A stretch of 64,000 nt of DNA from Spizellomyces punctatus DAOM BR117 (taxonomy: Eukaryota), in assembly GCA_000182565.2 (NCBI GenBank), contig KQ257454.1, one strand, 5' to 3'. The notes under the pieces are model-generated. The model was not told the origin of the DNA. It made no database searches and saw only the letters and a program-made list of their open reading frames with translations. Below, piece by piece: positions 26,162 through 41,699 of the stretch. The translations under genes were made by a program, and so were the position numbers. Each line of letters starts with the position of its first letter. Positions within the stretch are counted from its first letter, which is position 1.

Positions 26162-28863
26162 ATGCCTGTTGACGTTGGTACGTATTCCTTCGCCTTGTTC
26201 TTACCTGCCTCGTCTGCGTTTGGTTGCTTACGATCGCACTAGCCCCTATCCGTTTGAGCACTTCCTCTGCGGAACCCGACCCTGACACGTTGGAAAGTCA
26301 AGTGCGTCAGCTCAAAAAGGAGCTCAAAGATTGGGAGCATGCATTTGCAAGCAAGGAAGGGAGAAAACCGGAGAAGGCCGATATAACGGCGAACAAGGAC
26401 ATAGGTTGGGAACGAACTCCCCTCGAACAGCTGTGACGGTTGACTAAAAATCCAAATTCTACTAGCGCGACGATACAAGGCGTATATCAAGCTAAAGTCT
26501 TCACTCGAGAGCTCACCTGCGCCGGATGAGAAGACTGAGAAATCGATACCCCGATCTAAATCAAGTAAACAACGTCGGCCGGCCACTCGTGATGATGAGG
26601 CAACAGAGGGTACCGCCAATGAGGAAGATGTTATTCCATTGCCAACCGTTGCAATGCCAAAACCGCCTCCAGTTGCAAAGAAGGTGCCCCGGAATGCGGT
26701 ACGGAAGGCCGCTGGGGCACGAGCTCTTACTAAGCCGAAAAGCAGAGGGGAACCAACCGACGATCCCTTTACCAGAGACGTGACATCGGACGGTGGAGAT
26801 GATTCTGAAGCTGCAGCAGAACAACAATCTCCGAGAGGGTCCACCACTTTGAAAGCAAACTTTTTGGACAAAGAAGCCGTTACGGCCATCGCCACCTCTA
26901 CTTTGGTTTCAGAAGAGCACCTGGACACGAGCTTGAACCCATCGACGGCCATAGCAGCCGAAGCCAGACCGTGGGGGGCAACAGCAGCTCTGCCAGAAAA
27001 TTTCAAATTGAGAAGAAATACAGTCTCAGTAGGACCCATTTCCACTGCAACGCTCTCTGCGGCTGAGAAACGGCCAACATCGCGGCCTGGAACCGCATCT
27101 GGAGAGCGACGTTCGACTTTCAGCGAGGGATCAAGACCAGTGACGAGCGCTGGCGGCATCGGTAGCAATACCGCCAATGCAGGCAGCCTGCAGGATAACT
27201 TTGGATCCACAGAGGCGTCTGAATTTCTGGATTTTATGAATCGACGAAAGGAAATTGAGAAAATTACCTCCACGCAGGTACCTGCGGGAGCCGTTACCGC
27301 TGCCGAAGCCCTCAAAGCCATGCAGCAACGTCCCAACTCACCCAACACTACGTCGCCTATGAAGACGGATCGTGCACGTGCACCCATTGTAACCTCCATT
27401 ACAGTTCAACAGTCCCCCTCCTCCGCGAATGCCAGCAAGTCATCGGCGTCACCCTCCATCCAAGCTAATCCGCCCTCACAGCCTTTGACTGCTGCTCAAC
27501 TCCGAGAACTCGCCAAACCTTACGATCCGACTGATATTGACTTGGAGGACGATACCATCCTAGATACACCTATACACGCCATCGATCACCGTATATCGGC
27601 GTCATCACCAACCAGCCGCCGATCAGATGCGCCCAAACCACCTAAACGACAATCGCTCGCGTTTGTAGCCTCTCCACAACATCGAGCCCAGCAACAGGAT
27701 GTAGACGACGGAGCGGATGAGGAGGAAGAGGAAAATGCTGGAGATATAGTGGCACCTTTGGCCACATCCCCCATGAACCCACAAACGATGTGTGTTGGAG
27801 CCGATGCGATTGGTTCGGCAATGAACCCAAGCCTGACCAACGCGCAGATCTTTTAGTACGTCTGTCATCATTTATTTGGGCTTGACATGTAACCATTTAA
27901 CCTTTCTCTGTGCCTTTTCAGCCGTATCCCGCCAGAATATATCCTCCGCTGCAAACTTTATCGCAAGAAAAATATTCTCGACAAGGCACATCCAACGTTT
28001 TTCCTATATAATCAGGTTGATGACACCTTCCTCCTCGCCGCACGTAAAAGAAAGAAGTCGAAGAGTGTCAATTACGTTATATCCACAAGTCAGGTTGATA
28101 TGAGTAAAGATTCAAAGCACTATGTTGCGAAGTTGAAGTAATTAGCCTCGATTGGGTCTGAGACTTCTGGTAGTGATTTAACCTAGTATTGAATAGGGCA
28201 AACTTCCAACGGACAAACTTCATCCTCTTGGATGCACGATCCTACAATCCTCGCGCATCCAATAAAGGGTTGCGAGAGCTCGCTTGCGTCAGTTATGTAA
28301 GTAGTCTCGCATACCATACATGTATGTATCCTTCTGAGGTAGCTCATTCTCCACCTTTGATTAGAGTAAAACTGTTCTTCCCAGAGAAATGTCCGTGGCT
28401 ATTCCCGCAACCCACATTGAAGAGCTATCGGTAACTCTTTCCAGTCTGAGCTGTCATCATATCACTCGGATGAACTCATACTTGCCAATTAGGAACATTA
28501 CTCAAAGGATATAATGGCAGATGTCAAAACCCAAAACACCAACAAACTACTCTTTCTGCGAAACAAGCCTCCACGGTGGAACGAAGTTACTCAGTCACAT
28601 TGTTTGAATTTTGGCGGACGGGTGACGCAGCCTTCCATCAAAAACTTCCAACTAGTCGGGACGGAGAATGGTATGAGCTATTGTAGTTGTTCAACGCATC
28701 TACTGGTCATCAACATATGTATTCTGCTTTAGAAAACTTTGTCATAATGCAATTTGGACGATGTGGCCCGGACTATTTTACGCTGGATGTGCGATACCCC
28801 ATGACTCCTCTCGACGCATTCGCCGTGGCACTGACCACCTTCGATGCATACGACAATGCATGA
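26162..28863 (+). CDS. Tubby-domain protein with an N-terminal Sld2/RecQL4-N-like helical module
   Basis: C-terminus [29 protein letters not shown]...[22 protein letters not shown]...FTLDVRYPM...[11 protein letters not shown]-terminus [25 protein letters not shown]...[12 protein letters not shown]; all joined in frame by GT-AG introns. Confidence 0.88.
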
Positions 28864-29236
28864 CAAAGTTAATTGTTGCAACATCATCTTACGGTGCCAT
28901 GGGTTGGAGAAAAGTCTTCAGATGACATTGTATACACCCAAAAGTTTGTTCAGTAACGTTTGTATGTAAGATTTTTAAAAGTGTATACTATGTACTGGTT
29001 TACCCATATCTATTAGCCAGCTCAATGCAAGATAATGAGTGGTTCTGGCTGTGCCAGCAGTAATGCATGCACTACTTCAGGTCCATAAAACTAACAAATA
29101 TCATTGAGAACGAGGACAGTTGTTCTGGTTCAGTAAGCGGAACTGCCGCAAGTCGATGAGGTTACCATTAACCTTGCCTCGTTTGCAAGCACGTTCGTGC
29201 ATCTGTGCATCTACCCTCCGTCAATATGCATTGAAT

Positions 29237-29923
29237 GACGTTGTACCCTGCTTTTAATGCTAGCTAGTAGCTTGCTCCGGAGCAAATTATTCCGCGCTCA
29301 ATGTGGTCAGATGCACTGCTATTTAGGGAAATAGCACTAGTTTGGCCCCAAGGAGACGAACGGGAGGATGTCTTCGGAAGAAAGGCTACAATTAACAAGT
29401 GGACGATATTGACTAAACTAATACTGGCTTTAACAGTGATCATATAGTGTGGTAGGGACGGTCTCATCAGCTACTTCTCAGCTATATCTATTTCCTTTTT
29501 ACTGATCACTATCGGTCATTAATGTGCCCACTGTCGGTGANNNNNNNNNNNNNNNNNNNNNNNNNNNNNNNNNNNNNNNNNNNNNNNNNNNNNNNNNNNN
29601 NNNNNNNNNNNNNNNNNNNNNNNNNNNNNNNNNNNNNNNNGACGGATTAGATCAGCGTGTCCAGGAAGGACACGACTTCGATTCGAGGGGGACCTCCTTG
29701 AATGCACGCATATACACATGGGAATTAAGGGGCCGAATAGTCCAGTCGGGACTGTAGTGTGCGTGGTGTGAGCAGCTACCTCCATCTTCGGATTGGAGCT
29801 CTATGATTGTTTCTAAGGGGGAGGGCAGTCATAGGGAGGGCCTCGGCAGGTGAAAGGGGGCCTGCGTTATGTTTTGACCAAATACGAAAGGGGATACATG
29901 ACCTGGTGCTGTAATGTCTTTTT
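29237..29923 (+). ncRNA. Candidate large structured ncRNA A, spanning the assembly gap
   Basis: Many 7-14 bp stems whose G-U pairs work on +, a C(UUCG)G loop, closing helix 29237-29245/29910-29918 followed by T5; no recognisable ORF. Confidence 0.45.
29541..29640. other. Assembly gap (100 N)
   Basis: Run of n characters. Confidence 1.
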
Positions 29924-30495
29924 CAAGCAAGGAGTCTGTACTTCACCAGACAACATTTAAGGTCGGCCCAGTATTATCTCATTGAAAAATCAAATCCTTT
30001 GATAGTTCCCAATTCTCCTTGTGTCGAACTGTGTATTTCTGAACTGGCGCAGACTTCAGAAGCAGAGGATCTGCGCAACTCTCGAACTCCGCTAATCGAC
30101 CTTCCGTGGCTCGCTGGCGGTTTGCCGCATCTGTGACCAGTCAAAGTCGGATAAATAAGTTGAATCGCTTATTGCGAGATCTCTGTCGTCTGACGCAGGA
30201 TGTCAGATGCCCTATTAAATGTCAGTTTCTAGGTGAAGAAAGAAAGCACGCTAGACGATCTCTCACGTTATTCTGTGCCAGATGTGGTGGTCGTTGTTAT
30301 CTAAATCTGACGGGTATCGTTCGTTTCATTATTCTAATCTTATAGCGCAGTCGTAGAACGTCATGTCTGCACACTCTGTAGTTGAGTGGTTAAAAGTGCT
30401 CATTTAGCGATCGGCAGGTCAATAACGTAAGCGGAGACAGTGATACGTCAGCATGCTTTGGTCCACTCATCCAGTGGTCAACCGTCCAATCCGTC

Positions 30496-31583
30496 ATGAC
30501 AGTGCTATACCCACTCGCTATCCTATGTATACTCGTCATTCCCTTATTCATAGCGCTGGTCGCTTACTTGCAGCCTAGGTGGATTATATCGTATGCTTCT
30601 CGCTGTTTTCCGCAGGTGTTATTCTGCTGCGACGATGGAGTTCGTCAAACAATAAATAGTCGCCACGCCGACAAGGTCATTGCCCTGACTATTGATGATT
30701 CCCCGTCTCCGGTGGGTTACTCGAAAGCTTCCGAACAACACCACAGGTGGGAATGGATATTGTAATGTACAATAAAATCGTTTTTTGCAGCTTACAGCGG
30801 CAATTTTGACTCTCCTGCGCCAGCACGATGCTAAGGCGACATTCTGTACGTAGGACCGTTCACTCTTTGCGATGCGCTAACTCATACATGGTATCTTGTT
30901 CTACTACAGTTGTTATTGGTTCATATGTGGAAAAGTTCAATACTCTCACTGGAGAGGGGAGCACATCTGAACTAGAGTCTGGATCGTTTAACGATCTGAT
31001 GACTGCAATAGTGTCCCATGGTTGTGAACTGGGAAATCACCTCATGTTTGATCACGCCAGTGTCAAGCTACCTCCAGCCATCTTTGAAAAACAACTACTT
31101 CAAGTTGATACCCTGCTGCGAAAATACGACAATCTCGCATTATCGCCTCCCAGGCGACGAAAGAGTGTTGCGATAGTCGACAGTACAGTGCCTTCCGGAG
31201 ATCTTCCGTCTATACCATCTCCCACTGCAGATGCGTCGAGAAGTGAGCCGGTTCAGTTAGAAGCACCGGTCAAATATCGATGGTTCAGGCCGGGATCGGG
31301 GTGGTTCAACTCAGCGATGCTAGCTACCGTAGAGAAGCACGGGTATCGGACGGCCTTGGGTTGTGTATATCCACATGATCCACATATTTCCAATGCCCGT
31401 TTAAATGCATGGCATGTGCTCCGTGGGGTGCATCCTGGTGCTATCATCGTACTTCACGATTGCCGGTCATGGACCATTGATACATTGAAGATACTCCTAC
31501 CCGAATTACGCAAGAGAGGATATGCTGTACGAACCCTCACAGAGGTGTACAGATCGAGACAAGTCAACGATGGCTGTATATAG
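30496..31583 (+). CDS. Polysaccharide deacetylase (CE4/NodB homology) with N-terminal membrane anchor
   Basis: IALTIDDSP, ATF-FVIG, ELGNH, WFRPGSG, PGAIIVLHD, ILLPELRKRGY. Confidence 0.9.
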
Positions 31584-31626
31584 TTGGTCAGGTAAATGGA
31601 AATGAAACCGAAAAGGATGTTATCAT

Positions 31627-33224
31627 CTATCGGTTGGTGCAGTCTTGTGACTGGATCCTAGTTTTGGCCGTGCCACTTGGGTATGGAGGATTGGGACCCG
31701 AGGCTGACAGTAGGACAGTGTAGAGGCGCGCACAGCAGATAGATCAACAAGGAATCTGAGGGAATTCAAGTCACCTGTTCATGAGCCTGGTGTCGGTTTA
31801 CAACCATGAAACCTGCTTTGGATGTATCTATTACGTCCGTATCTGTCATGATTCGGTGAACGCGGAAGACTCGTGGTGCTTGTGGGGCTGTGGGAGGGAT
31901 GCTCGGAGGACGCGGCTGAGCGGTGATTGGTCCAAGGACAGGACCTATTCATTGCAATCCATAAGTTCATCGCAGCCTGCAATACGATGAGCATCGAGAG
32001 AACGATACCTGTCTTGGCATGTTGATTTCGATCCAACAAGGAGTCAAGGTCTGCCTTCCGCTCATGCTTTCTCCACTTGTTCTGAAAGGGATAGTTTGCA
32101 GTCAGTTGACTCCAAATTCGACAAATGCTTTTCATTCATCTGCGGTGGTACCTCCAACTTGTCCGAAAAACTCCGCAAGTCTTGAATCGATGGAGGGCTT
32201 AAACCTCTGACACATTCAGCCCTGCATGTCCGCGGTTAGCACAACCATCGCCAGTTAAACAAGGATTTAACCCACTTCGATCGGTGGTCTCTCTCATCAT
32301 CCATGGCTTGCCGTAGCGCTTCCACTTCAGTCAACAGCCTGTCTTTCTCGCTCATGAGCGCACGACTGTTTATCGAATGTTCAGTGTTAATTTGACAGTT
32401 GTCCTGCTGAGACGGGACACCAAAAGACAATCCTACCGAAATTGACTTAAGACATCAGTCGCATCGAGGATGTTCTTAACTTGACCTGTATCCAGGAGTG
32501 CAGGTGTTGATCCAGGTCGCTTTCCCGCACCTTGAAGCGCAAATGGTAATCAGGCCAAAGTTCTGTGGTCTCCGTATGACAAATCGCAACAATACCCGAA
32601 GATATTGGTCGCCGTCTCCTCGATGTCTCTTCCGCATGGATGTAATTTACTACATGGCCAAATACAGTGAGAACGGGAAGGCTTTTAGGAATCAGTTTTC
32701 TTCTACTGCTGAAGCTCAGATAAAAATGCGGGCGAAAGGAGCCGTACCAATCCGGATATCCTGCTCGTTTTCCAGTATTGATTCTTGTGACCGGTGATCG
32801 TCCGCTACCTATCCTGTGTCTCAGCAAATCTGTCCATTCAAAGACACGAGGGAATATAAGGACATACCTCTTTGAAGTTGTCCAACAATAGTCGAATTTT
32901 TTGTATCAAAGCTGAGCGGTGGAAAGTACCAGAGCCGATGCCTCCCTGCACCATGCCTTCGACAAAAGACTTGGGCAAAAGGATTTCAATGGAACTCTAC
33001 ACGAAAGCAGCGTACCGCAAATAATAGTAACTCACCTTGTCAGTCTCTTGCCTGTACTCCTCATGTATCTCCATCAGCATCCTGGCTTCCAACTCCAATT
33101 CCTCAACCTGGCCAACCAAGTGTTCCCCCAGCAACCCTCGTAGTTCATCCCGTTCCTGTGGCGGGGCAGCAACTAATATGGATTCAAGAAGAGAAACAGT
33201 GGGAGTGTATCTTTCAGAGTGCAT
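31627..33224 (-). CDS. CCDC24: CCDC24-like coiled-coil protein
   Basis: SLLESILVAAPPQERDELRGLLGEHLV...ELELEARMLMEI, LIQKIRLLLDN, RALMSEKDRLLTEVEALRQAMDDE; 3' exons uncertain. Confidence 0.6.
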
Positions 33225-33745
33225 GGTTGTGTTTTTCTATTGTAACTTTTATGTTACTAGCAATGCATCTATTTCTGAAATAGAATCCGCGATTACTTAA
33301 GCTGATCGCATAAGCAAGAAGTAGTAAACCCTATCAATGCTACTACGGCTAGACAATTTCATATGGAGCAGTTAAACTATCTACTTCTTGATTAGCTGAG
33401 GTGTAGTTGCTCAATCTAATGTATTGTATTTGACACGGCTGATGTCGTATGAAGACTGGGAGGCCTAGCACGCGATAATCGAACGAAGCGGATTCTTTGA
33501 CACTTCCTGTTAGTCTGAACGACAGCCATTGTCCGAGTTCCGTTAGAGTCTATTTGGCTTTGTGTCCCGCCTTCTGCATCATAAATTGAAACAGATCCCG
33601 TGGATTGAGTCATTTTTGGACCAGAAAGCTGTGAAAGTATGGATTCTGCTGGATTGCATAGGTTTCAGCAGGTATCTGGTGTTTGCCTACCGCTGTCATC
33701 CTGGTAAGTGCGTGGTTCACAATGCCAATGACCTTGTCCAGAGGC

Positions 33746-36700
33746 CTACTTGGTAAAATCTTCGCCATAATCAAAGAAGAGCTCTTTCTCAGCTTCGATC
33801 CGCCGCGCAGCGTATATGCCAACCCTGGAAACGATAGATGAGTGGGAACTGGTTTCAAAAAACAGGAGAAAACTGGAACACTGCACCTACCTAAGTTCGC
33901 CGCTCACCATCTTAACTAATTAGTTTAATCGAATCCGATAGATACCATTAGAACTTTGGCGAATTTAGTTCAACAGTTGAGCTCTCCTCACCAACTGGGA
34001 AGCAATTGGCTTTATCTGGATATTCTCCATGATTGATAAATCGGGTTTTGTTCCCTTTCCGTGAGGCATCCACTAATGGCGCATATTTATCTCCCAAGCT
34101 GAAAAGATAATTTAATTTGGACGCTGCATTGATGGCATCCCGTCTGCGTTTGACCGAACAACGTGGTGAGCTACAGTCAGAATCTGTCCTCAAGTTTGAT
34201 GGCACACCTATTTGATTCTGCAACGGATATCACCTATATATGGGGATGATGAGCACTATAGTACACGGAAAACTTAGATTCTTATACATACCCCTCCCGT
34301 GTATTCAGCAAGCAGCTCCCCTTTCTCCGCTAATATTTAATGCTCGTGAGTCGCATGCTTGAAGCAGGAAGACGTCGCACACCATACCAGGCTCACGTAA
34401 AAATGCTCCACGACCGTGCACCTCGCTGTCGCCAACACATAGATGCTATATTTTATGTGACGTCGCGGTTATCGCAAACTTCGGAGCTTGCAGTGTAGCG
34501 TCAGCAAAGTACCAATACCTTCTTCATATTTCTTTGCATAGCTTGATTATGGCAGGTTAAGGAGGATGTCTTCCGTCCAACAGCCCCACACTCCACTACA
34601 ATCAAGATATAATCTCAGTCTAATAAATGCACTGTTCAATATCACTACTTCGCTGTACCATCTGCACCGCAGGATCTGGGCAATATTTAAGTTAGTTTGT
34701 ATTCATCTTTCTACTAAAGTTCTCGCAGCACACGCACCTACACACATCAGGATCACATTCCCTCTCTTCGTGAACACATCTACAAAACTCCTTCCCGTTC
34801 GCTTGGAGTTTGAAATGACCTTTCACATGCCTGTTTTCCGTTTGGTCCCAGGTGGCTGGAACTTTAATCACTTTAGCACGACACCCCGATACGCAGTCAC
34901 AGCCAGGATATCGATATGGACAGAATTTGGAGCACGCGCATGTTCTCTCGCAAAAGTTCCCCGTTTTCACGCAGCTGCAGTTTTCTGTGCACACAGCGGT
35001 AGCGGGGTTATGTAAGTGATCTTCACAGCTGCAAGGAGCGGTCGGCGTACGCTTCCGAGTGGGAGAATATTCTATAAACAGAAGTATTGGAACAACTAGC
35101 GCGGAAGATAAAACATATTTGAGGACCTTTTTTGGGAACAGCAGGAGGTAGTGCCATGCGGCCAGAGATGGCGAGCCTATCCGCCTCCTTGATCATTTCG
35201 GTCAATGATGAAATTAAGGCCCCTTCGTACATAGCGAGCGCTGTGCAGTCGCCGTTAGTCAAGGCGATGACCATGTAGTAAACCTAAGTATCAACAGGTT
35301 ACATCGGATCAAGGAATGTATACTGCACATCGCAGTGGTATGTGAACTCACGTCTGCACACGACTTATTCGAATATGATATTGATATTCGGCAGTAGTCG
35401 CGTCCAAAGCATCGGTAAGCGACTCCCAGAGTCCTCAATTCATCACTTTTCCAGTCAGCAACACGGGCTGATATCGTGTCCTCACAGATTTCTGTCTCTC
35501 TCTTATATACAGATTTAATCAGGGTTGTCTCACAAGACGTTTCCTCATAAATAAGGGTATGTACCTGAAAATAATAGCAACAGTTTGAGCTGCATGGCGA
35601 AGAGACGCTTTTCGGGACATTGGGTATTTCGATGAAAGGTTTGCGCTGGCGCAACGCTGTAGTGGATACTAGGGCATTGGTAATCCAGTCTCCAAGACCG
35701 ACCGCAGCACACTGACCATCCTTATCGAAAGACATTAGATGTGTCTGACATCCAGCTAACCCACATATTTGACATATGAGATGGAATTCACCATCGAATG
35801 CGGTATGCGAGCGGCGATCTCCATCCGTGCTCAATCTTAAATGCCTGACGAAGATCACCGTCTCACACAGATTAGCACAGCAGGTCGACACAAGACTCAG
35901 AGGAGTGAATCTACCGTTTAAGCAGCTCGACAGCACTCATGCTTCCAATCTTCTGACGGGCAAGTGCTCGAAGAGTTCGGGTTACCTCCAGCTTCGTAGA
36001 AGTGAAGGTGGCCTTTCGTTTGCCATTTGAAAGGTTGGCGAAGAGCTCTTGCAGAACATCCCTCGGAGCGCACGAAGACAAGATATGCTCACTAAACGCA
36101 AGTATCTTTTGGCGCTCTGATGTTCATGCGAGCGTGAGGTTCAGAACCTGCCCCGCAATTCGGGACGGTTGTTGAGTCAGATAATGCAATGGCCCACCCT
36201 TATCATTTTCCATGGACCAGTTTGCCAAGTCCTCTACCCATTCATCGTCTTCTTCTCCTGAGCTCAACAAAGCAGAACGCCGTACGGGGTCATTCGGCTC
36301 CTACAGTTTGAAGAACCATATGTGAACAAACTAGCCAAAGGTGTCCCATAAGATGGCAGCACGGGGTTTCTGTTGTGAGTACCTTTACACTCCGTGCAGT
36401 TGGAATAAATGTGAAAGAGTTCATACGCTCGAACTTTCCTTCCACAACAACAATCGAGCTCCCCGTTGTTGATCCTGCCTCTTTTTTTATCGGAGTGTTT
36501 GACGGCGTCAATTCCCAGGAGGACGGACGGAATCCAGTTGTGTATGCTTTCAAGGCTCGCTTATATACCTTCTATAGAATTCGAATGCAACACGGTAAAC
36601 CGGTGGCTAATGCAATCCGCCAGCCAATGCGACAGATTCCCGAACCTTGCGCTGGTTGGTCAACTCCACATTCCAGCCTTTCTCCCACTTTTGCAGGTCA

Positions 36701-36858
36701 AGTAACAGCTTCTTTTCAACTCTCCTGTCCTCTTCGTCCGAAACCGAACTATCACTCCCGTCAGAATCCTCTGCATGTTTCCTCTTCCTTGCATTATGAG
36801 ACTCTAAATCCCCCGTGTCTGCAAAGGCGTTATCAATCCTGGAACTTTTCCTCGACAT
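33746..36858 (-). CDS. EZH2: Enhancer of zeste / KMT6-like H3K27 methyltransferase (CXC + SET)
   Basis: CXC: CTENCSCVKTGNFCERTCAC...CPYRYPGCDC...ERECDPDVCRC; SET: LAEYTG, VDASRKGNKTRFINH, ANCFP, VGIYAARRI..ELFFDYG. Confidence 0.85.
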
Positions 36859-37198
36859 CACTCCCCCAGAACCATCCCTTGAAGATGCCAGGAGAGGCCA
36901 AGTTGCTCTGTGGCACAGTCATGTAATTGGGCAAGTGCTGCGCACGCAAAGTCACAGAAGGCGGGGGCAGCCAGTGGAGGAACACGTACCGCGATGAGTC
37001 AGCCAGGTGAGCTTCAACTGCCCCACTCTTGCTGTTAAGATATAAACCTCATCCCACCGTTGTCCACCCCGTTAACAAGCTTACAAGCAAGAGACTAGCT
37101 ATCAGCGCTATATTGGTAGCTGCTGCTTTGAGGTCTCGTTTCCTTTGCTCGAAAAATTGGTCCCCCAGATAGCAACTCCTGGGCTTGGGGGATCTGCC

Positions 37199-39826
37199 AT
37201 GGCTACAAACGGCCTTTCTGTTTCCGATGCGGTCGCTCTGGCGCAGCAGCTAGCAGCGACGTCCTTGAGTGATACATTACCTGAAAATCCAGAGGATCAT
37301 GTATCTTTCTTTGGAGAGGAGGTTATTGGAGCAGTTGACGCAAACCTATGTTTGAGAGTATGTCTCAATAGAGTTCCCACGTGAATTGTTTATGAACTGA
37401 CCTGTATCCCTTCCTTGAACAGGACCTTTATTTGAACGCAACAGCAGAAAACATGACAAAGATCATAAACCAGCTGGAAGATCGATTGCGCACTGGCCAA
37501 GGAGAAACGCTGTTCGAGATAGGTCTTGAAGGTAGGAACGAGTCAATTCCTTTTGGTGCACGGTACATCGGCGTTAACTCAGATTATTGTGATATGTAAA
37601 TAGAGGACGGAGGATCTATGAATTTGACACAGAGTGAATTTGATATGTGCTTAGAAACTATTCGACGCGCTGCCGACAAGCTCAACGCCGACGTGACAGT
37701 GATACATCAGCGGAACACGGTAGTATTAACATCCTCTGGGAAAAGCGCGCAAGAAGAAGGGAGGAGCAATGCGGACGCTTCCAAGGACTACTTCTACGCC
37801 CATGCTCTGATTAGACGGCGACCTGGCAAGGTGGAGGACATGACAGAACTGCGTATTTGCGTGGTTGGAAATGTCGATGCTGGAAAATCAACTTTGTTGG
37901 GTGTCTTGACTAAAGACATGCTGGATGACGGTCGCGGAAGAGCTCGCGTCAATCTCTTTCAGCACAAACATGAGATTGAGAGTGGGAGAACTAGCTCTGT
38001 TGGGATGGAAATCATGGGGTTTGATTCCAAAGGGAATGTAATCACTCCCTCAATGCTCGGCAAGGCTAAGCTGACCTGGGATGACATCTGCTTGCATTCG
38101 CCTAAGGTACAGAAGATGGCTTCTGCCACGCAAAGATATTTTCCGTTCGTGAGTCGACTCTAAACTCGAGTTATACAGGTGTTGACTTTCATGGACTTGG
38201 CTGGTCACGAAAAGTACTTGAAAACGACCGTATTTGGGATGACGGGAACCAGTCCAGACTTTGCTATGCTCATGGTACATGATGGAGTGATCGGATGCTC
38301 CTTATCGTGATTTAACCGTGTGCTCTCTTTCGCAGATTGGTTCAAATGCTGGGATAATTGGAATGACGAAAGGTAAAACAATTTTTCAGACAACATATCC
38401 CACGGAGAAGCTGACTTTATACTTGGATAAGAGCATCTCGGTTTAGCATTGGCCCTCAACGTGCCGGTGTTCATCGTCATAACCAAAATCGACATGTGTC
38501 CGAGTAACGTACTGGAGAGCACTATTAGCCAGCTTACTAAAATACTGAAGAGTTCTGGGTGCCGTAAGATTCCCATGTTCATCAACACGGTCGGCGATGT
38601 GCTGGTTACCGCGGGTAATTTCGTCAGCGAACGGTGAGTACGCGCATATTGAGGCCGAATCACCGTACGACCCTAACATTTTCCCAGAATTTGCCCCATT
38701 TTCCAAGTATCCAACGTCACTGGCCAAGGCTTGGATTTGTTGAAGCTCTTCCTGAATGTCATCCATGCAAACGGTATTGGAAAGTATAACCCAGACCAGC
38801 CGGTCGAGTATCAGATCACGGATACATTCAGCGTGCCCGGTGTTGGTACTGTCGTCAGTGGAACTGTCATTAACGGTACGTTTTAAAAGAGCAACACGAA
38901 CACGTACTAGATCCTGACCTTTGTTGCCAAAGGCATCGTGCATGTTGGAGACCAGTTGCTCTTGGGACCCGATGCGAACGGACATTTCATGTCGACAATG
39001 GTGAAGTCAATACACAGGAAGCGCGTCAATGTTCCTGTTGCATTAGCAGGACACAGCGCTTCCTTCGCCTTGAAGAAAGTCAAACGTGCGGGTATTCGGA
39101 AGGGCATGGTGATGCTGAGGTATGATTGCTACCCCTAATATGACATTGACTTAGACAATACTGAATATCCTTATCATCATACGCACGTTGCAGCAAAAAT
39201 GCCGCTGCGAAGGCCGTTTACGAATTTGAGGCGGAAATTCTTGTTTTGTATCACAGTACTACTATCTCGCAGAAGTATCAGGCGATGTTGCATTGTGGAT
39301 GTGTTAGACAAACGGCAAAGATTATTGGAATGGACAAGCAAGTATTACGAACCGGCGACCGTGCGTTTGTGCGATTTCGGTACGTAGGATACCCAAATAG
39401 TCATTGATAACATTTGACACCTTGAATTGATTTCTCATTGCTGTTCAGATTCATTCAGCACCCTGAATATCTCAAGGAGGGAACGCGATTACTGTTCCGT
39501 GAAGGTTGGTGCTAGCACGCTGCTTTAAGACGTTGTACATATACTCAATGCAATTGTCTCTCCCAGGTCGAACGAAAGGAGTTGGAAAGGTCGTCCGATT
39601 ATTCACTGAAGCCGAAGCTCTTAAGCCCAATCCACACCCGCAGGAGGACGTCAACACTGCCCGGAAGAAACCTCCAAATAACCCACCATCAGGATCCTCT
39701 CCATTAGCAATTGAAAAGAAGACATCTCGACGACATCATCATCACGGTGGGGGTCATGGAACCACTAAGGCAGATACCGGCCATCACAGAACGGGAGGAG
39801 GGGCCAGCGTCGCAGTAAAGACGTAA
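37199..39826 (+). CDS. GTPBP1: GTP-binding protein 1/2 (translational GTPase)
   Basis: [55 protein letters not shown]. Confidence 0.93.
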
Positions 39827-39975
39827 CGTCCCTAATGCTCTTCCGCGGTATTGTACGATAGTGCCGTACCACACACGAGGTCGCCGTTCTCGCATTTCTC
39901 TGCTGTGGAAAAGATGTTTTTACTGTAAATGCTTTCATTGTTTTGTGGATGGGTTCATGAGGAGTATATATTTCA

Positions 39976-40012
39976 TTTAATGAGCCAAAGGCATTTTAAT
40001 GAGCCAAAGGCA
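39976..40012. repeat. Short tandem duplication TTTAATGAGCCAAAGGCA x2
   Basis: Two identical 18-mers with period 19 in the GTPBP 3' region. Confidence 0.85.
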
Positions 40013-40299
40013 ATAAGGCAATTAGTCTTTCGAGGAGCATTGTGCACCATAGGAAAATTTAAAAATTACAAGACTTTCGTAAATAATCTTGTCCTGATTA
40101 TCATCCTCAGCCCAACCATAATAACGCCGTTTCTTCATGGTGATAACTGTTGGCTCGTTGCACTTGTTGAAGAAACGATTCTTGAATGGAGCGCGAAGGC
40201 GTATTAACCTGGTCTGTAATCAGGAATTGTTGTGTGAACGTTGTGAATGGAACAGAAGCGCCCGCCCGTAGAGCTCGTCGGATTTGCCATGGTAGCGAT

Positions 40300-40980
40300 A
40301 AATAAAAGAAAGGGAAGACAAGGTGAGTAGCAAGCCAGATACGTTCGACATCAGTGAGCCTCAAACATTGTTAAGGGCAAGCGGGCGATTACGGAACAAC
40401 ACGTATACGACTATCGTACGTGTGAGATGTTCCATAATCGCCCGCTTTCCCCAACTTTCTCATGAATGAGACGACGGTTTGACATCCTGTAGAGAAAGCA
40501 TGCTGGCACGACGCAGGGCTGGCGCTTTGGAGTTGTTTTACCCGCCTGCACTCTGACAAGGTAAAGGTCCAAAACACTGGCCGTGATTTATCGCTGCCCG
40601 GTCTACAAGCTAGGTCAAAACCGCAACCGGATCGGCCTTTGTATGGTTTTGTGCGTCGGCATCCAAAGGATTCCCCCGGGCTATGGATGTAACATCCATC
40701 ATCTCAACGAATCCACCATGTGCAGGATGACTGCCTTGACCTCACCAGGGAATCCGCCCAAGGAGTGGGATGACTTGCTTTGGGAGGTCAAAGCAAGTCA
40801 CCGATACCCTCGCGGCCACCTGCTGGACTGTGAATGTTGTTGCGACAGCAACATCTGACGCGGAAATGGCCAGGTCACCCCATCTGCCAGACCACCCACA
40901 TCCGAAGAGGCTCCTAAGCATCAGGCAAACTCGCCATATTCTTTGTGTTCAATTCAGTACTTACCAGATGAATGGCGATT
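40300..40980 (-). ncRNA. Candidate large structured ncRNA B
   Basis: Perfect 13-bp and 12-bp stems, a roughly 150-nt rod, G-U pairs favouring the minus strand, closing helix 40884-40875/40326-40317 followed by a U-rich tail; no recognisable protein. Confidence 0.6.
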
Positions 40981-41699
40981 GGGAAGATGGGTAGATGAGA
41001 GGTCGCGCAGAAAGAATGACGCGTTCCCAACTAATGTTGCGCGCACCTCTGAGTGCGCCACTATATCATGACTGTGCCCCATCACATGAACGTCACGTTG
41101 CAAAGTGCGCAGCTAGTGCGCGCCATGGGCGCCGCACCCCACCTTAGCCGCGCGATGAATCTAGCAGCGCAAGCAATTAATGAACTAGTTACTTGAAGAC
41201 CTGGCCAAACCCAATTGGTGCAGTCTTTGGGGTTTCAAAGGGCCATGGCAAAGAATTGACGCATATACTTGTAGTGATCTTGTGGATAGCTGAATATTCC
41301 ATAGTTGGTTGCATAACAGTGGGTTGCATGCAATAAATGAAAGACAAAGCTGCGACAAACTCCTCATCCATGCTCCAATCATGGTCGCAATGTCATTATC
41401 GGGGGTATCTGGCCAATGCACTTGCAATGAAGCAGGCAGGGGACCTGCAACCCACCATGCCGTATTTGTTGAAGATACCTCTATCAGCGACAAGTAAAAA
41501 CTGACATCGAGGCAAGCGTCTCGTGGTCCAAGAGCGAATCTTGTCCCGTCCCTTCATCCGAATATTCTGCCCAAGGTGGACGACTGCTAACTTTGACAGG
41601 TTTCTGCAGCTAGTGCCACGGACTGGCCAGGTATGCAATGAGATCCATCGGGTAGAGTAGCATTGCCAAGAACCCTCGAGCTGTCAGCCTGATTGTGCC

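Follow-up and report, generated by a model that had tools for sequence, protein, structure and literature searches.

Spliced long non-coding RNAs whose intron is retained or removed inefficiently are a known category of transcript, and fungal microRNA-like precursors and mirtron-like intronic hairpins are precursors of small RNAs. Long structured introns with zipper, downstream or long stems are described for S. cerevisiae in PMC12350175 and PMC2536676. Introner-like elements, reported from the Dothideomycetes in PMC3609843, are longer than regular introns, at about twice their length, and have stable predicted structures. PMC8469720 describes (stw)introns of the Hypoxylaceae that are symmetrical, form hairpins and proliferate. 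A search of the literature on Spizellomyces introns, non-coding RNA, small RNAs and lncRNA found nothing specific to the organism. The present analysis concerns a stretch of 64,000 nucleotides (64 kb, hereafter the window) from the chytrid Spizellomyces punctatus. One exon of a GTPase gene in the window has 100% identity to a protein assigned by NCBI to S. punctatus DAOM BR117. The original prediction placed in the window two structured blocks, A on the plus strand and B on the minus strand, and read them as possibly intron-derived RNAs that may form a single family.

Block B corresponds to a 751-nt U2-type GT..AG spliceosomal intron on the minus strand (40214–40964). Five RNA reads with five distinct starts (run X7) cross the minus-strand joint 40965→40213. 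The donor GTAAGT is at 40964 and the acceptor, ..TTACAG, ends at 40214. On the plus strand the skipped segment runs CT..AC, and the first mate is minus-strand in all five reads. Intron B is a genuine GT-AG intron that the ordinary spliceosome takes out. The proposal that the blocks are excised as introns, with GUAAG as splice donor, thus holds for B, which lies wholly inside the spliced-out sequence and whose GUAAG at 40964 is in use. The U-tract proposed as its polypyrimidine tract does not belong to the acceptor in use, which lies ~90 nt beyond, at 40214.

The adjoining gene, encoding a GTPBP1-like GTPase (37199–39826, plus strand), provides a yardstick for local intron length. All ten of its introns measure 54–74 nt, and intron B is more than 10 times as long. 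Inspected by eye, the last ~50 nt of intron B contain a single YTRAY-like motif, CTGAT at 40223–40219, 6 nt before the AG. The tails of the ten GTPase introns mostly carry CTRAC or TTAAC-like motifs, and these lie farther from the AG than CTGAT does in intron B. Reads with loose ends inside the intron, at 40258–40288, number 19 and 10 and so outnumber the 5 junction reads (X7); splicing of intron B therefore appears inefficient. Intron B is U2-type, far exceeds a short norm, and shows long predicted stems and an excess of folding energy over controls; in this it resembles the structured introns of S. cerevisiae as reported in PMC12350175.

Intron B's host is a short, polyadenylated transcript of the minus strand, flanked by a kinase gene and by the 3' end of the GTPase gene, which converges on the host and has a poly(A) site at 40086 (a loose end with 10 reads). 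The upstream exon (40965–41030) has its 3' end at 40965 fixed by the junction, and its other limit, 41030, is only a guess. Minus-strand depth in this region is 1.91 in 40584–41067 and 0.27 in 41068–41551 (X7). By our own reading of the sequence, the frame across the junction has no ATG from an upstream TAG near 41031 to the junction. The downstream exon starts at 40213 and is drawn to 40022, the stop of its sole ORF, a frame of 38 codons with its ATG at 40138; minus-strand depth is 10.7 and 8.9 in its two bins (X7). This frame has no match among database proteins of 34–111 or 112–2000 residues, a weak negative since short ORFs are rarely annotated. The database does contain the annotated GTPase of S. 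punctatus. No ORF of at least 100 residues occurs in 39827–41184. The host transcript is probably non-coding, and for block B the predicted non-coding host is borne out to this extent. With its two exons, its polyadenylation, its lack of a credible ORF, and reads from both junction and intron, the host resembles spliced lncRNAs with a retained intron. It is set apart from them only by the extreme length of the intron for this genome and by the palindromes.

Run X7, the one RNA run that yielded reads, consists of 60-nt reads; ~6% of the run was used, and it cannot show small RNAs or excised introns. Plus-strand depth is 15.8 at the 3' end of the Tub-family gene and 34.4 at that of the GTPase gene, and minus-strand depth is 19 for the minus-strand kinase gene. 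Because these depths fall on the genes' own strands, we infer that read direction follows the RNA sense. We also infer that the library is 3'-biased, since depth in the body of the GTPase gene is near zero compared with 34.4 at its 3' end. Runs X1 and X3 give low-depth contigs that continue unspliced through the exon–intron boundary, and these are read as DNA; run X8 gave 0 contigs. A GTPase exon compared with metagenomes matches 80 loci, the best at 57% protein identity, too distant for introns or spacers to be aligned, and these loci were left aside.

Nowhere in the window is foldability higher than in block B. Folding energies were regressed on composition and ranked in 1268 windows over the 64-kb stretch, and block B takes ranks 1, 4, 5, 6, 7, 13, 14, and 20, or 8 of the top 20. 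The segment 40300–40990 folds with z = -4.94, matched by 0 of 20 shuffles, and the whole intron with z = -4.01 (205 shuffles). This foldability comes mainly from a few local, near-Watson–Crick inverted repeats, chiefly two hairpins on the minus strand. The larger, a near-perfect 86-nt hairpin (40370–40455), is built from helices of 7 + 20 + 6 + 4 bp. It is the top inverted repeat among 7 pairs in 64 kb, with 24-nt arms that are 92% complementary, and its 20 uninterrupted base pairs, including one G-U, make the longest of 106 minus-strand stems. The smaller, of 34 nt (40769–40802), has a 14-bp stem with one G-U and a 6-nt loop, and among the window's uninterrupted minus-strand stems its stem ranks second in length. 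Both of the longest stems with few G-U pairs in the window lie in B. In all, intron B holds 5 of the 106 stems of at least 10 bp found on the minus strand, and it occupies 1.2% of the window length. Beyond the two big hairpins, the minus-strand window 40401–40700 has z = -1.41 and rank 87 of 1268; this somewhat above-average folding counts against the explanation preferred below.

The hairpins of intron B pair about equally well on both strands. In four of them, G-U pairs (in the minus-strand RNA) and A-C mismatches (G-U if the plus strand were the RNA) stand at 3:1, 0:2, 0:0, and 1:1, giving 4 G-U and 4 A-C in total and no strand asymmetry. The palindromes therefore look as though they formed at the DNA level. 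Most likely they are young inverted duplications that would happen to sit in a tolerant, inefficiently spliced intron and that fold without a demonstrated job. With moderate confidence we favor the explanation that B is a real long intron carrying DNA-level hairpins of this kind and that A is an unrelated spacer. Long perfect palindromes are usually unstable, which, together with a compact genome, hints at selection on intron B or a very recent origin. Because the genome is compact, neighboring introns are 54–74 nt long, and very few DNA transposons are reported for S. punctatus in PMC5751038, a neutral 751-nt hairpin-laden intron is also somewhat unexpected. If the hairpins did arise as recent inverted duplications, intron evolution has here produced no more than an ordinary curiosity.

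A different reading takes intron B, or its unspliced host, as a hairpin-RNA locus. Dicer-like or RNase III enzymes would cut the hairpins into microRNA-like or mirtron-type small RNAs, and delivering these would be the purpose of the non-coding host. The stems of 20 + 6 + 7 bp and 14 bp are almost free of mismatches, and no others in 64 kb are as good; the host lacks credible coding capacity, and the intron is far longer than it needs to be. A long near-perfect hairpin in an intron of a low-coding transcript also recalls microRNA-like and mirtron-like precursors and the sisRNAs of PMC7137253. The only near-match in Rfam is to a hairpin-shaped miRNA model, mir-2009, with the 86-nt hairpin; its 29.7 bits fall well below the gathering score of 90, and the identification was rejected. 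This sub-threshold resemblance sets intron B apart from such precursors, and the lack of G-U versus A-C asymmetry also speaks against selection on the RNA form of the hairpins. PMC5364385 reports that the RNA-dependent RNA polymerase of RNAi is missing from three of four chytrids compared; the fourth, S. punctatus, is implied there, without being stated, to keep it. RNAi genes were also sought in one supplementary file of PMC5751038, and the name "Spizellomyces" does not occur in that file; PMC6206976 mentions the assembly only as an entry in a resource table. On this balance, a hairpin-RNA locus is possible, though unlikely. Much the same chance may be given to the broader proposal that a dedicated non-coding host gene has intron B as its functional product, either through small RNAs from its hairpins or as an excised intron that would remain in the cell as a stable, structured RNA. 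If true, it would be an example, in an early-diverging fungus, of an intron-hosted hairpin-RNA gene. Hairpins that yield small RNAs or stabilize the excised intron would give a handle on RNA-based regulation in the chytrid lineage.

The combination of great length and a very stable predicted fold is also that described for introner-like elements and the Hypoxylaceae (stw)introns (PMC3609843, PMC8469720). Intron B might accordingly be a mobile or recently proliferated intron, either an introner-like element or a foldback- or MITE-type insertion, with the stable fold as part of the element. Both groups of introns are defined by many near-identical copies. Within the 64-kb window, nothing in B recurs apart from its own inverted repeats. 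Terminal inverted repeats were considered and rejected: the termini of intron B pair at -10.3 kcal/mol, and 90% of random pairs do as well or better, so that their complementarity is at chance. The length of intron B, more than 10 times the norm, also departs from the ~2-fold reported for introner-like elements (PMC3609843), and the few DNA transposons reported for S. punctatus (PMC5751038) do not favor a transposon-type insertion. We consider a mobile origin improbable.

The structure could instead be what makes an over-long intron spliceable, bringing the 5' splice site into the vicinity of the branch point in the manner of a yeast zipper stem. The minimum-energy fold of block B contains the helix AGAUGGGGUGA/UCACCUUGUCU at 40885–40875 / 40326–40316 and an outer helix, 40930–40922 / 40268–40260, of 9 bp with four G-U pairs; together they enclose ~550 nt. 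If CTGAT at 40223–40219 is the putative branch point, the outer helix would leave a linker of ~74 nt, within the 42–85 nt window reported for yeast zipper stems (PMC12350175). The closing helix of block B, at -24.1 kcal/mol, ranks in the best 4% of 3000 random pairs, the helix having been selected post hoc; it also counts against our preferred explanation. However, along the fold the 5' splice site lies 22 steps from the branch-point-like site, compared with a shuffle mean of 10.7 (n = 205), and 92% of the 205 shuffles have a path as short or shorter. End closure is therefore generic, and B shows no advantage in it. The exceptional hairpins form locally and make no bridge between the intron ends. 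In these respects, local stems and an effective distance no shorter than in shuffles, intron B differs from the structured introns of S. cerevisiae reported in PMC12350175, and its host is a short, apparently non-coding chytrid transcript rather than a ribosomal-protein gene. A zipper-like role would be more doubtful still than a mobile origin.

Block A, which the preferred explanation treats as a spacer, lies on the plus strand. Its 5' part (29100–29540) is a transcribed spacer ~240 nt 3' of the Tub-family gene (PF01167), whose last coding ORF ends at 28863. Its 3' part (29641–29935) is mildly structured, judged by fold z, with low plus-strand expression, judged by read depth. Between them are 100 N (29541–29640), a gap or withheld stretch. 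Since the domain proposed for block A crosses these 100 bases of unread sequence, the block is not fully definable. The 5' part folds with z = -1.62 (6 of 100 shuffles as good) and has a plus-strand depth of 2.45 and no joint, and the 3' part has z = -2.44 (3 of 200 shuffles as good). The best window of block A ranks 15 of 1268 and its other plus-strand windows 61–350.

Unlike in B, excision as an intron finds no counterpart in A. The GUAAG at 29133 has no junction reads, and no splice joint occurs in 29100–29950 (X7, at low depth in a library taken to be 3'-biased). Plus-strand depth is 0 in 29936–30419 (X7), where an exon downstream of block A would sit. Three variant sites of block A are paired in the predicted fold; two break their pair, and none is compensated. 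Block A is a transcribed spacer unrelated to B, weakly structured and split by a gap, and the available reads do not show it as an intron. Two observations are counted against the spacer reading. The plus strand of block A is consistently more foldable than the minus strand, and reads pile up locally to a depth of 10–14 at 29760–29784, with variants at partial frequency.

The case for a family joining A and B had been made from an architecture said to be common to both: a splice-donor-like GUAAG upstream, a closing helix, arms with a C(UUCG)G loop, and a tail motif before a U-tract. The short motifs are all in place. GTAAG starts at 29133 (+) in A and at 40964 (-) in B; block A has CTTCGG at 29372 and 29786 (+), block B at 40907 (-); and the tails are ACCTGGTGCTGTAATGTCTT at 29901 (+) in A and ATCTGGCTTGCTACTCACCTTGTCTT at 40340 (-) in B. 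These motifs are mostly as frequent as chance would make them, as the original prediction had itself allowed. The 64-kb window holds 105 GTAAG, and it holds 22 CTTCGG, where 200 Markov simulations lead one to expect 28.7. Loosened forms of the tail pattern are present 3 times, for expectations of 0.94 and 1.3. A tight tail pattern occurs twice, against 0.015 expected; having been written from the two sequences themselves, it proves nothing. The closing helix ascribed to both blocks is present in the minimum-energy fold of B, with the standing given above. That of A (-12.2 kcal/mol) is at chance: of 3000 random pairs, 69% do as well or better.

Similarity between the two blocks is likewise at chance. 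A within-window sequence comparison gives no A–B match. In local alignments, the fraction of 3000 random pairs scoring at least as high is 0.42 for the heads and 0.42 for the tails, and among random pairs it is 0.87 for the A 5' part against B and 0.43 for the A 3' part against B. Nor was a common fold found. The consensus for the 3' domains, built on a sequence-based MAFFT alignment rather than with a structural aligner, contains 47 pairs, and its folding term over 330 columns is -6.7 kcal/mol, whereas comparable 290–300-nt stretches folded as single sequences reach -102.9 and -112.1 kcal/mol.

It is therefore very improbable that A and B diverged within a single, so far undescribed class of large, structured ncRNAs derived from introns. 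In favor of this, four short motifs common to both do exist, transcription of both blocks runs on the strand proposed for them, and each folds better than its shuffles. Set against this are the chance-level similarity and the missing common fold, together with the features of A: a closing helix at chance, neither junction nor downstream exon signal, two of three paired polymorphic sites breaking their pairs, and an architecture that spans 100 unknown bases. With a sequence-based alignment and a search confined to the window, neither a significant structural alignment of the blocks nor any further member emerges, an outcome that the original prediction had named as refuting it. The shared architecture of A and B is a sum of chance-frequency motifs and the generic end closure of long RNAs. 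Large, structured RNAs from introns would be notable as a new class, but the proposal is unsupported by the evidence. What remains is a modestly interesting long structured intron in one spliced, apparently non-coding chytrid transcript.

Known RNA families were also searched for. Rfam 15 at gathering score gives 0 matches in the 64-kb window, and in E-value mode, applied to each block and to each half of A, only sub-threshold, chance-level matches. A tRNA/tmRNA scan found none. Box C/D snoRNAs were sought with a simple heuristic (C box RUGAUGA, D box CUGA 50–250 nt downstream, terminal stem of at least 4 bp), which returns 0 candidates on both strands of 39900–41100, 28900–29540, and 29641–30100. 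Telomerase RNA was rejected as well: on the repeat assumed for this organism, the window contains no 9-mer of (CCCTAA)n. A single 8-mer of (CCCTAA)n is present at 38670, within the GTPase gene.

Block B, a minus-strand stretch (about 40300–40980) proposed as a structured RNA, lies wholly within a spliceosomal intron. The reads of X7, an RNA sequencing run mapped onto the window, include a joint from 40965 to 40213 that skips 751 nt and is covered by five reads with five start places. The skipped stretch, 40964–40214, is bounded by CT..AC on the plus strand, which is GT..AG on the minus strand. This joint identifies the GUAAG at 40964, originally described as donor-like, as a used splice donor and places block B in an intron. 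The U-tract at about 40300–40320 had been suggested as the polypyrimidine tract, but it does not serve the used acceptor, which is located about 90 nt further on. X7 is composed of 60-nt reads, and about 6% of the run was read. Read direction was taken as RNA sense, based on the plus-strand depth at the 3′ ends of the plus-strand Tub-family and GTPase genes (15.8 and 34.4) and the minus-strand depth of 19 for a minus-strand protein-kinase gene. Coverage appears to be 3′-biased, since the body of the GTPase gene has a depth near zero compared with 34.4 at its 3′ end.

Block B is flanked by the kinase gene on one side and by the plus-strand poly(A) site of the GTPBP1-like GTPase gene (40086, from X7 reads) on the other. 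The GTPase gene (37199–39826, plus strand) was delineated by threading a 660-residue protein through the DNA and contains ten GT-AG introns of 54–74 nt each. Its exon 37600–38160 is 100% identical to a S. punctatus DAOM BR117 protein of 660 residues, and the next closest proteins, from other chytrids, share at most 69% identity. The 751-nt intron is thus more than 10 times as long as the introns of its neighbor. It behaves like an ordinary U2-type intron and has the splice-site ends and junction reads of one, and an Rfam search places it in no family. Two groups of loose-ended X7 reads, 19 and 10 in number, map at 40258–40288 inside the intron, compared with five junction reads. We read them as frequent unspliced RNA, which this library cannot separate from an internal start site. 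X7 reads are clipped at 40258, and their loose ends, compared by eye, become similar to the genome a few bases on (about 40240–40257), suggesting that the sequenced strain may carry a short substitution cluster in the 3′ part of the intron.

The intron is removed from a short, polyadenylated minus-strand RNA. Minus-strand depth, at 10.7 and 8.9 in the pair of bins at the 3′ end, drops to 1.91 and then 0.27 upstream, which points to a short host transcript starting below about 41070. This host is probably non-coding. In the upstream exon, inspection by eye revealed no ATG between the upstream TAG and the junction in the frame that spans the junction. The downstream exon contains a single ORF of 38 codons (40138–40022, minus strand), and no ORF of at least 100 residues is present between 39827 and 41184. 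The exon 2 frame has no match of any length class in a collection of 5.8 billion proteins that includes the S. punctatus GTPase.

Three further features were observed around the host transcript. In exon 2, an 11-bp stem (10 bp Watson–Crick) formed by TCGTTTCTTCA and TGAAGAAACGG with a 30-nt loop (40127–40178) spans the ATG of the 38-codon ORF. Divergent from the host, the plus strand at 41068–41551 has an X7 depth of 7.21 and no credible ORF; the two transcripts may share a bidirectional promoter. Just upstream of exon 1, several GC-rich GCGCAC-type motifs in direct and inverted orientation are visible by eye at 41040–41140 on the minus strand and may constitute a promoter element.

Block B is exceptionally long and rich in hairpins. 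The region 40300–40990 folds better than its shuffles with a z of −4.94, and the exact intron with a z of −4.01. When 300-nt windows from the two strands (1268 in all) were ranked by folding energy after regression on base composition, those at ranks 1, 4, 5, 6, 7, 13, 14, and 20 lay in 40201–41000. Most of this excess stability is contributed by inverted repeats that pair locally. An 86-nt hairpin (40455–40370, helices of 7, 20, 6, and 4 bp) and a 34-nt hairpin (40802–40769, 14 bp) contain the two longest uninterrupted stems with few G-U pairs on the minus strand of the whole window. The hairpins are almost pure Watson–Crick palindromes. Among four hairpins, mismatches that are G-U on the transcribed strand and those that are A-C there (G-U on the other strand) number four each, and this balance gives no sign of strand-specific selection at the RNA level.

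We lean, with modest confidence, toward a non-coding host whose inefficiently spliced intron would carry hairpins generated by inverted duplication at the DNA level, probably recently. The main rival, possible if rather unlikely, holds that the hairpins act as small-RNA or dsRNA elements, with the host serving to deliver them. In its favor, PMC5364385 describes an RNAi polymerase as absent from three other chytrids, and thereby implies, rather than states, its retention in S. punctatus.

An origin as a mobile intron is improbable. The length and stable fold of block B fit the "long and stable" account of introner-like elements in PMC3609843; however, those elements are about twice the normal length, compared with more than 10 times for block B, and they are defined by their multi-copy status, whereas block B lacks terminal repeats and has no second copy within the window. 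DNA transposons are also reported to be scarce in S. punctatus (PMC5751038). Block B further resembles the long, structured yeast introns described in PMC12350175, in which zipper stems bridge the intron. That its structure likewise aids splicing is quite improbable because its ends are closed no better than those of shuffled sequences. Block B is best regarded as a long structured intron of a spliced, probably non-coding transcript.

Block A (about 29100–29935, plus strand) lies between the plus-strand Tub-family gene (end of the last coding ORF, 28863) and a plus-strand polysaccharide-deacetylase gene recognized by a Pfam match, with a start near 30454 by eye. Its proposed domain covers unknown sequence, since 100 N interrupt the block at 29541–29640. 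Block A is predicted to fold only slightly more stably than shuffled sequences (z = −2.44, 3 of 200 as good; z = −1.62, 6 of 100 as good). In the foldability scan, its top window comes 15th of 1268 and the rest of its plus-strand windows fall at ranks 61–350; of the 14 bp in its longest stem, 5 are G-U. Neither half matches Rfam. Plus-strand transcription is low (X7 bin depths of 2.45 and 1.62), with a local pile-up of depth 10–14 at 29760–29784 against the bin mean of 1.62. The predicted intron origin, which holds for block B, finds no counterpart here: X7 lists no splice joint in block A, and the bin expected to hold a downstream exon (29936–30419) has a plus-strand depth of 0. We conclude that block A is a transcribed spacer, belonging either to a far 3′ extension of the Tub-family transcript or to a separate RNA made at low level. 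The same bin, just upstream of the deacetylase gene, has a minus-strand depth of 5.46 and no plus-strand reads, a pattern suggestive of an antisense or upstream transcript that is missing from the annotation and ends beside block A.

The 130-nt stretch 29686–29812, adjoining the 100-N gap, displays four partial-frequency transitions in X7 (T>C in 6 of 10 reads, T>C in 4 of 11, A>G in 3 of 14, and T>C in 4 of 5) and one G insertion. Some reads carry just one of two neighboring changes. Reads drawn from multiple nearly identical copies in the genome, from a mixed population, or from different alleles could account for the mixture; the predominance of U>C makes RNA editing unlikely. Of the four variants in the 3′ part of block A, three fall at paired positions of the predicted fold: two disrupt the pairing, one converts A-U to G-U, and none of the three is compensated.

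The original prediction joined blocks A and B as diverged members of one undescribed class of structured, intron-derived non-coding RNA. All the short motifs it listed are present at the positions given, but they carry little statistical weight. GTAAG is found at 105 sites in the window, and CTTCGG at 22, where 28.7 would be expected. The tail motif in relaxed form has three occurrences, with about one expected; the motif is unique solely in the form derived from blocks A and B themselves, a circularity that deprives the uniqueness of weight. Local alignments of the heads and tails, the short features shared at the two ends, are equaled by 42% of random segment pairs, and a short-word BLASTN search detected no match between the blocks. 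The closing helix of block A (−12.2 kcal/mol) is equaled or bettered by 69% of random pairs, and that of block B (−24.1 kcal/mol) is among the best 4%. Over 205 shuffles of the intron, the folded path averages 10.7 steps compared with 22 in the real intron, and the shuffled ends are predicted to close more tightly than the real ones. Any long RNA is thus predicted to form a helix that closes off a multi-arm domain. When the 3′ domains of the two blocks were folded jointly, on a sequence-based rather than a structural alignment, the consensus had a folding term of just −6.7 kcal/mol over 330 columns, compared with −102.9 and −112.1 kcal/mol for comparable stretches folded singly. With similarity at chance level, the proposed class is not supported, and membership of both blocks in one such family is extremely improbable.

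Across the 64-kb window, ORFs are split, a tRNA scan found no tRNA genes, and Rfam families have 0 matches. The second most foldable region outside block B is 35600–36200 (ranks 3, 8, 10, and 19 of 1268; z = −2.66 on the minus strand). X7 reads are essentially absent from it, and its span takes in the start of a minus-strand ORF (35259–35936) that belongs to no Pfam family.
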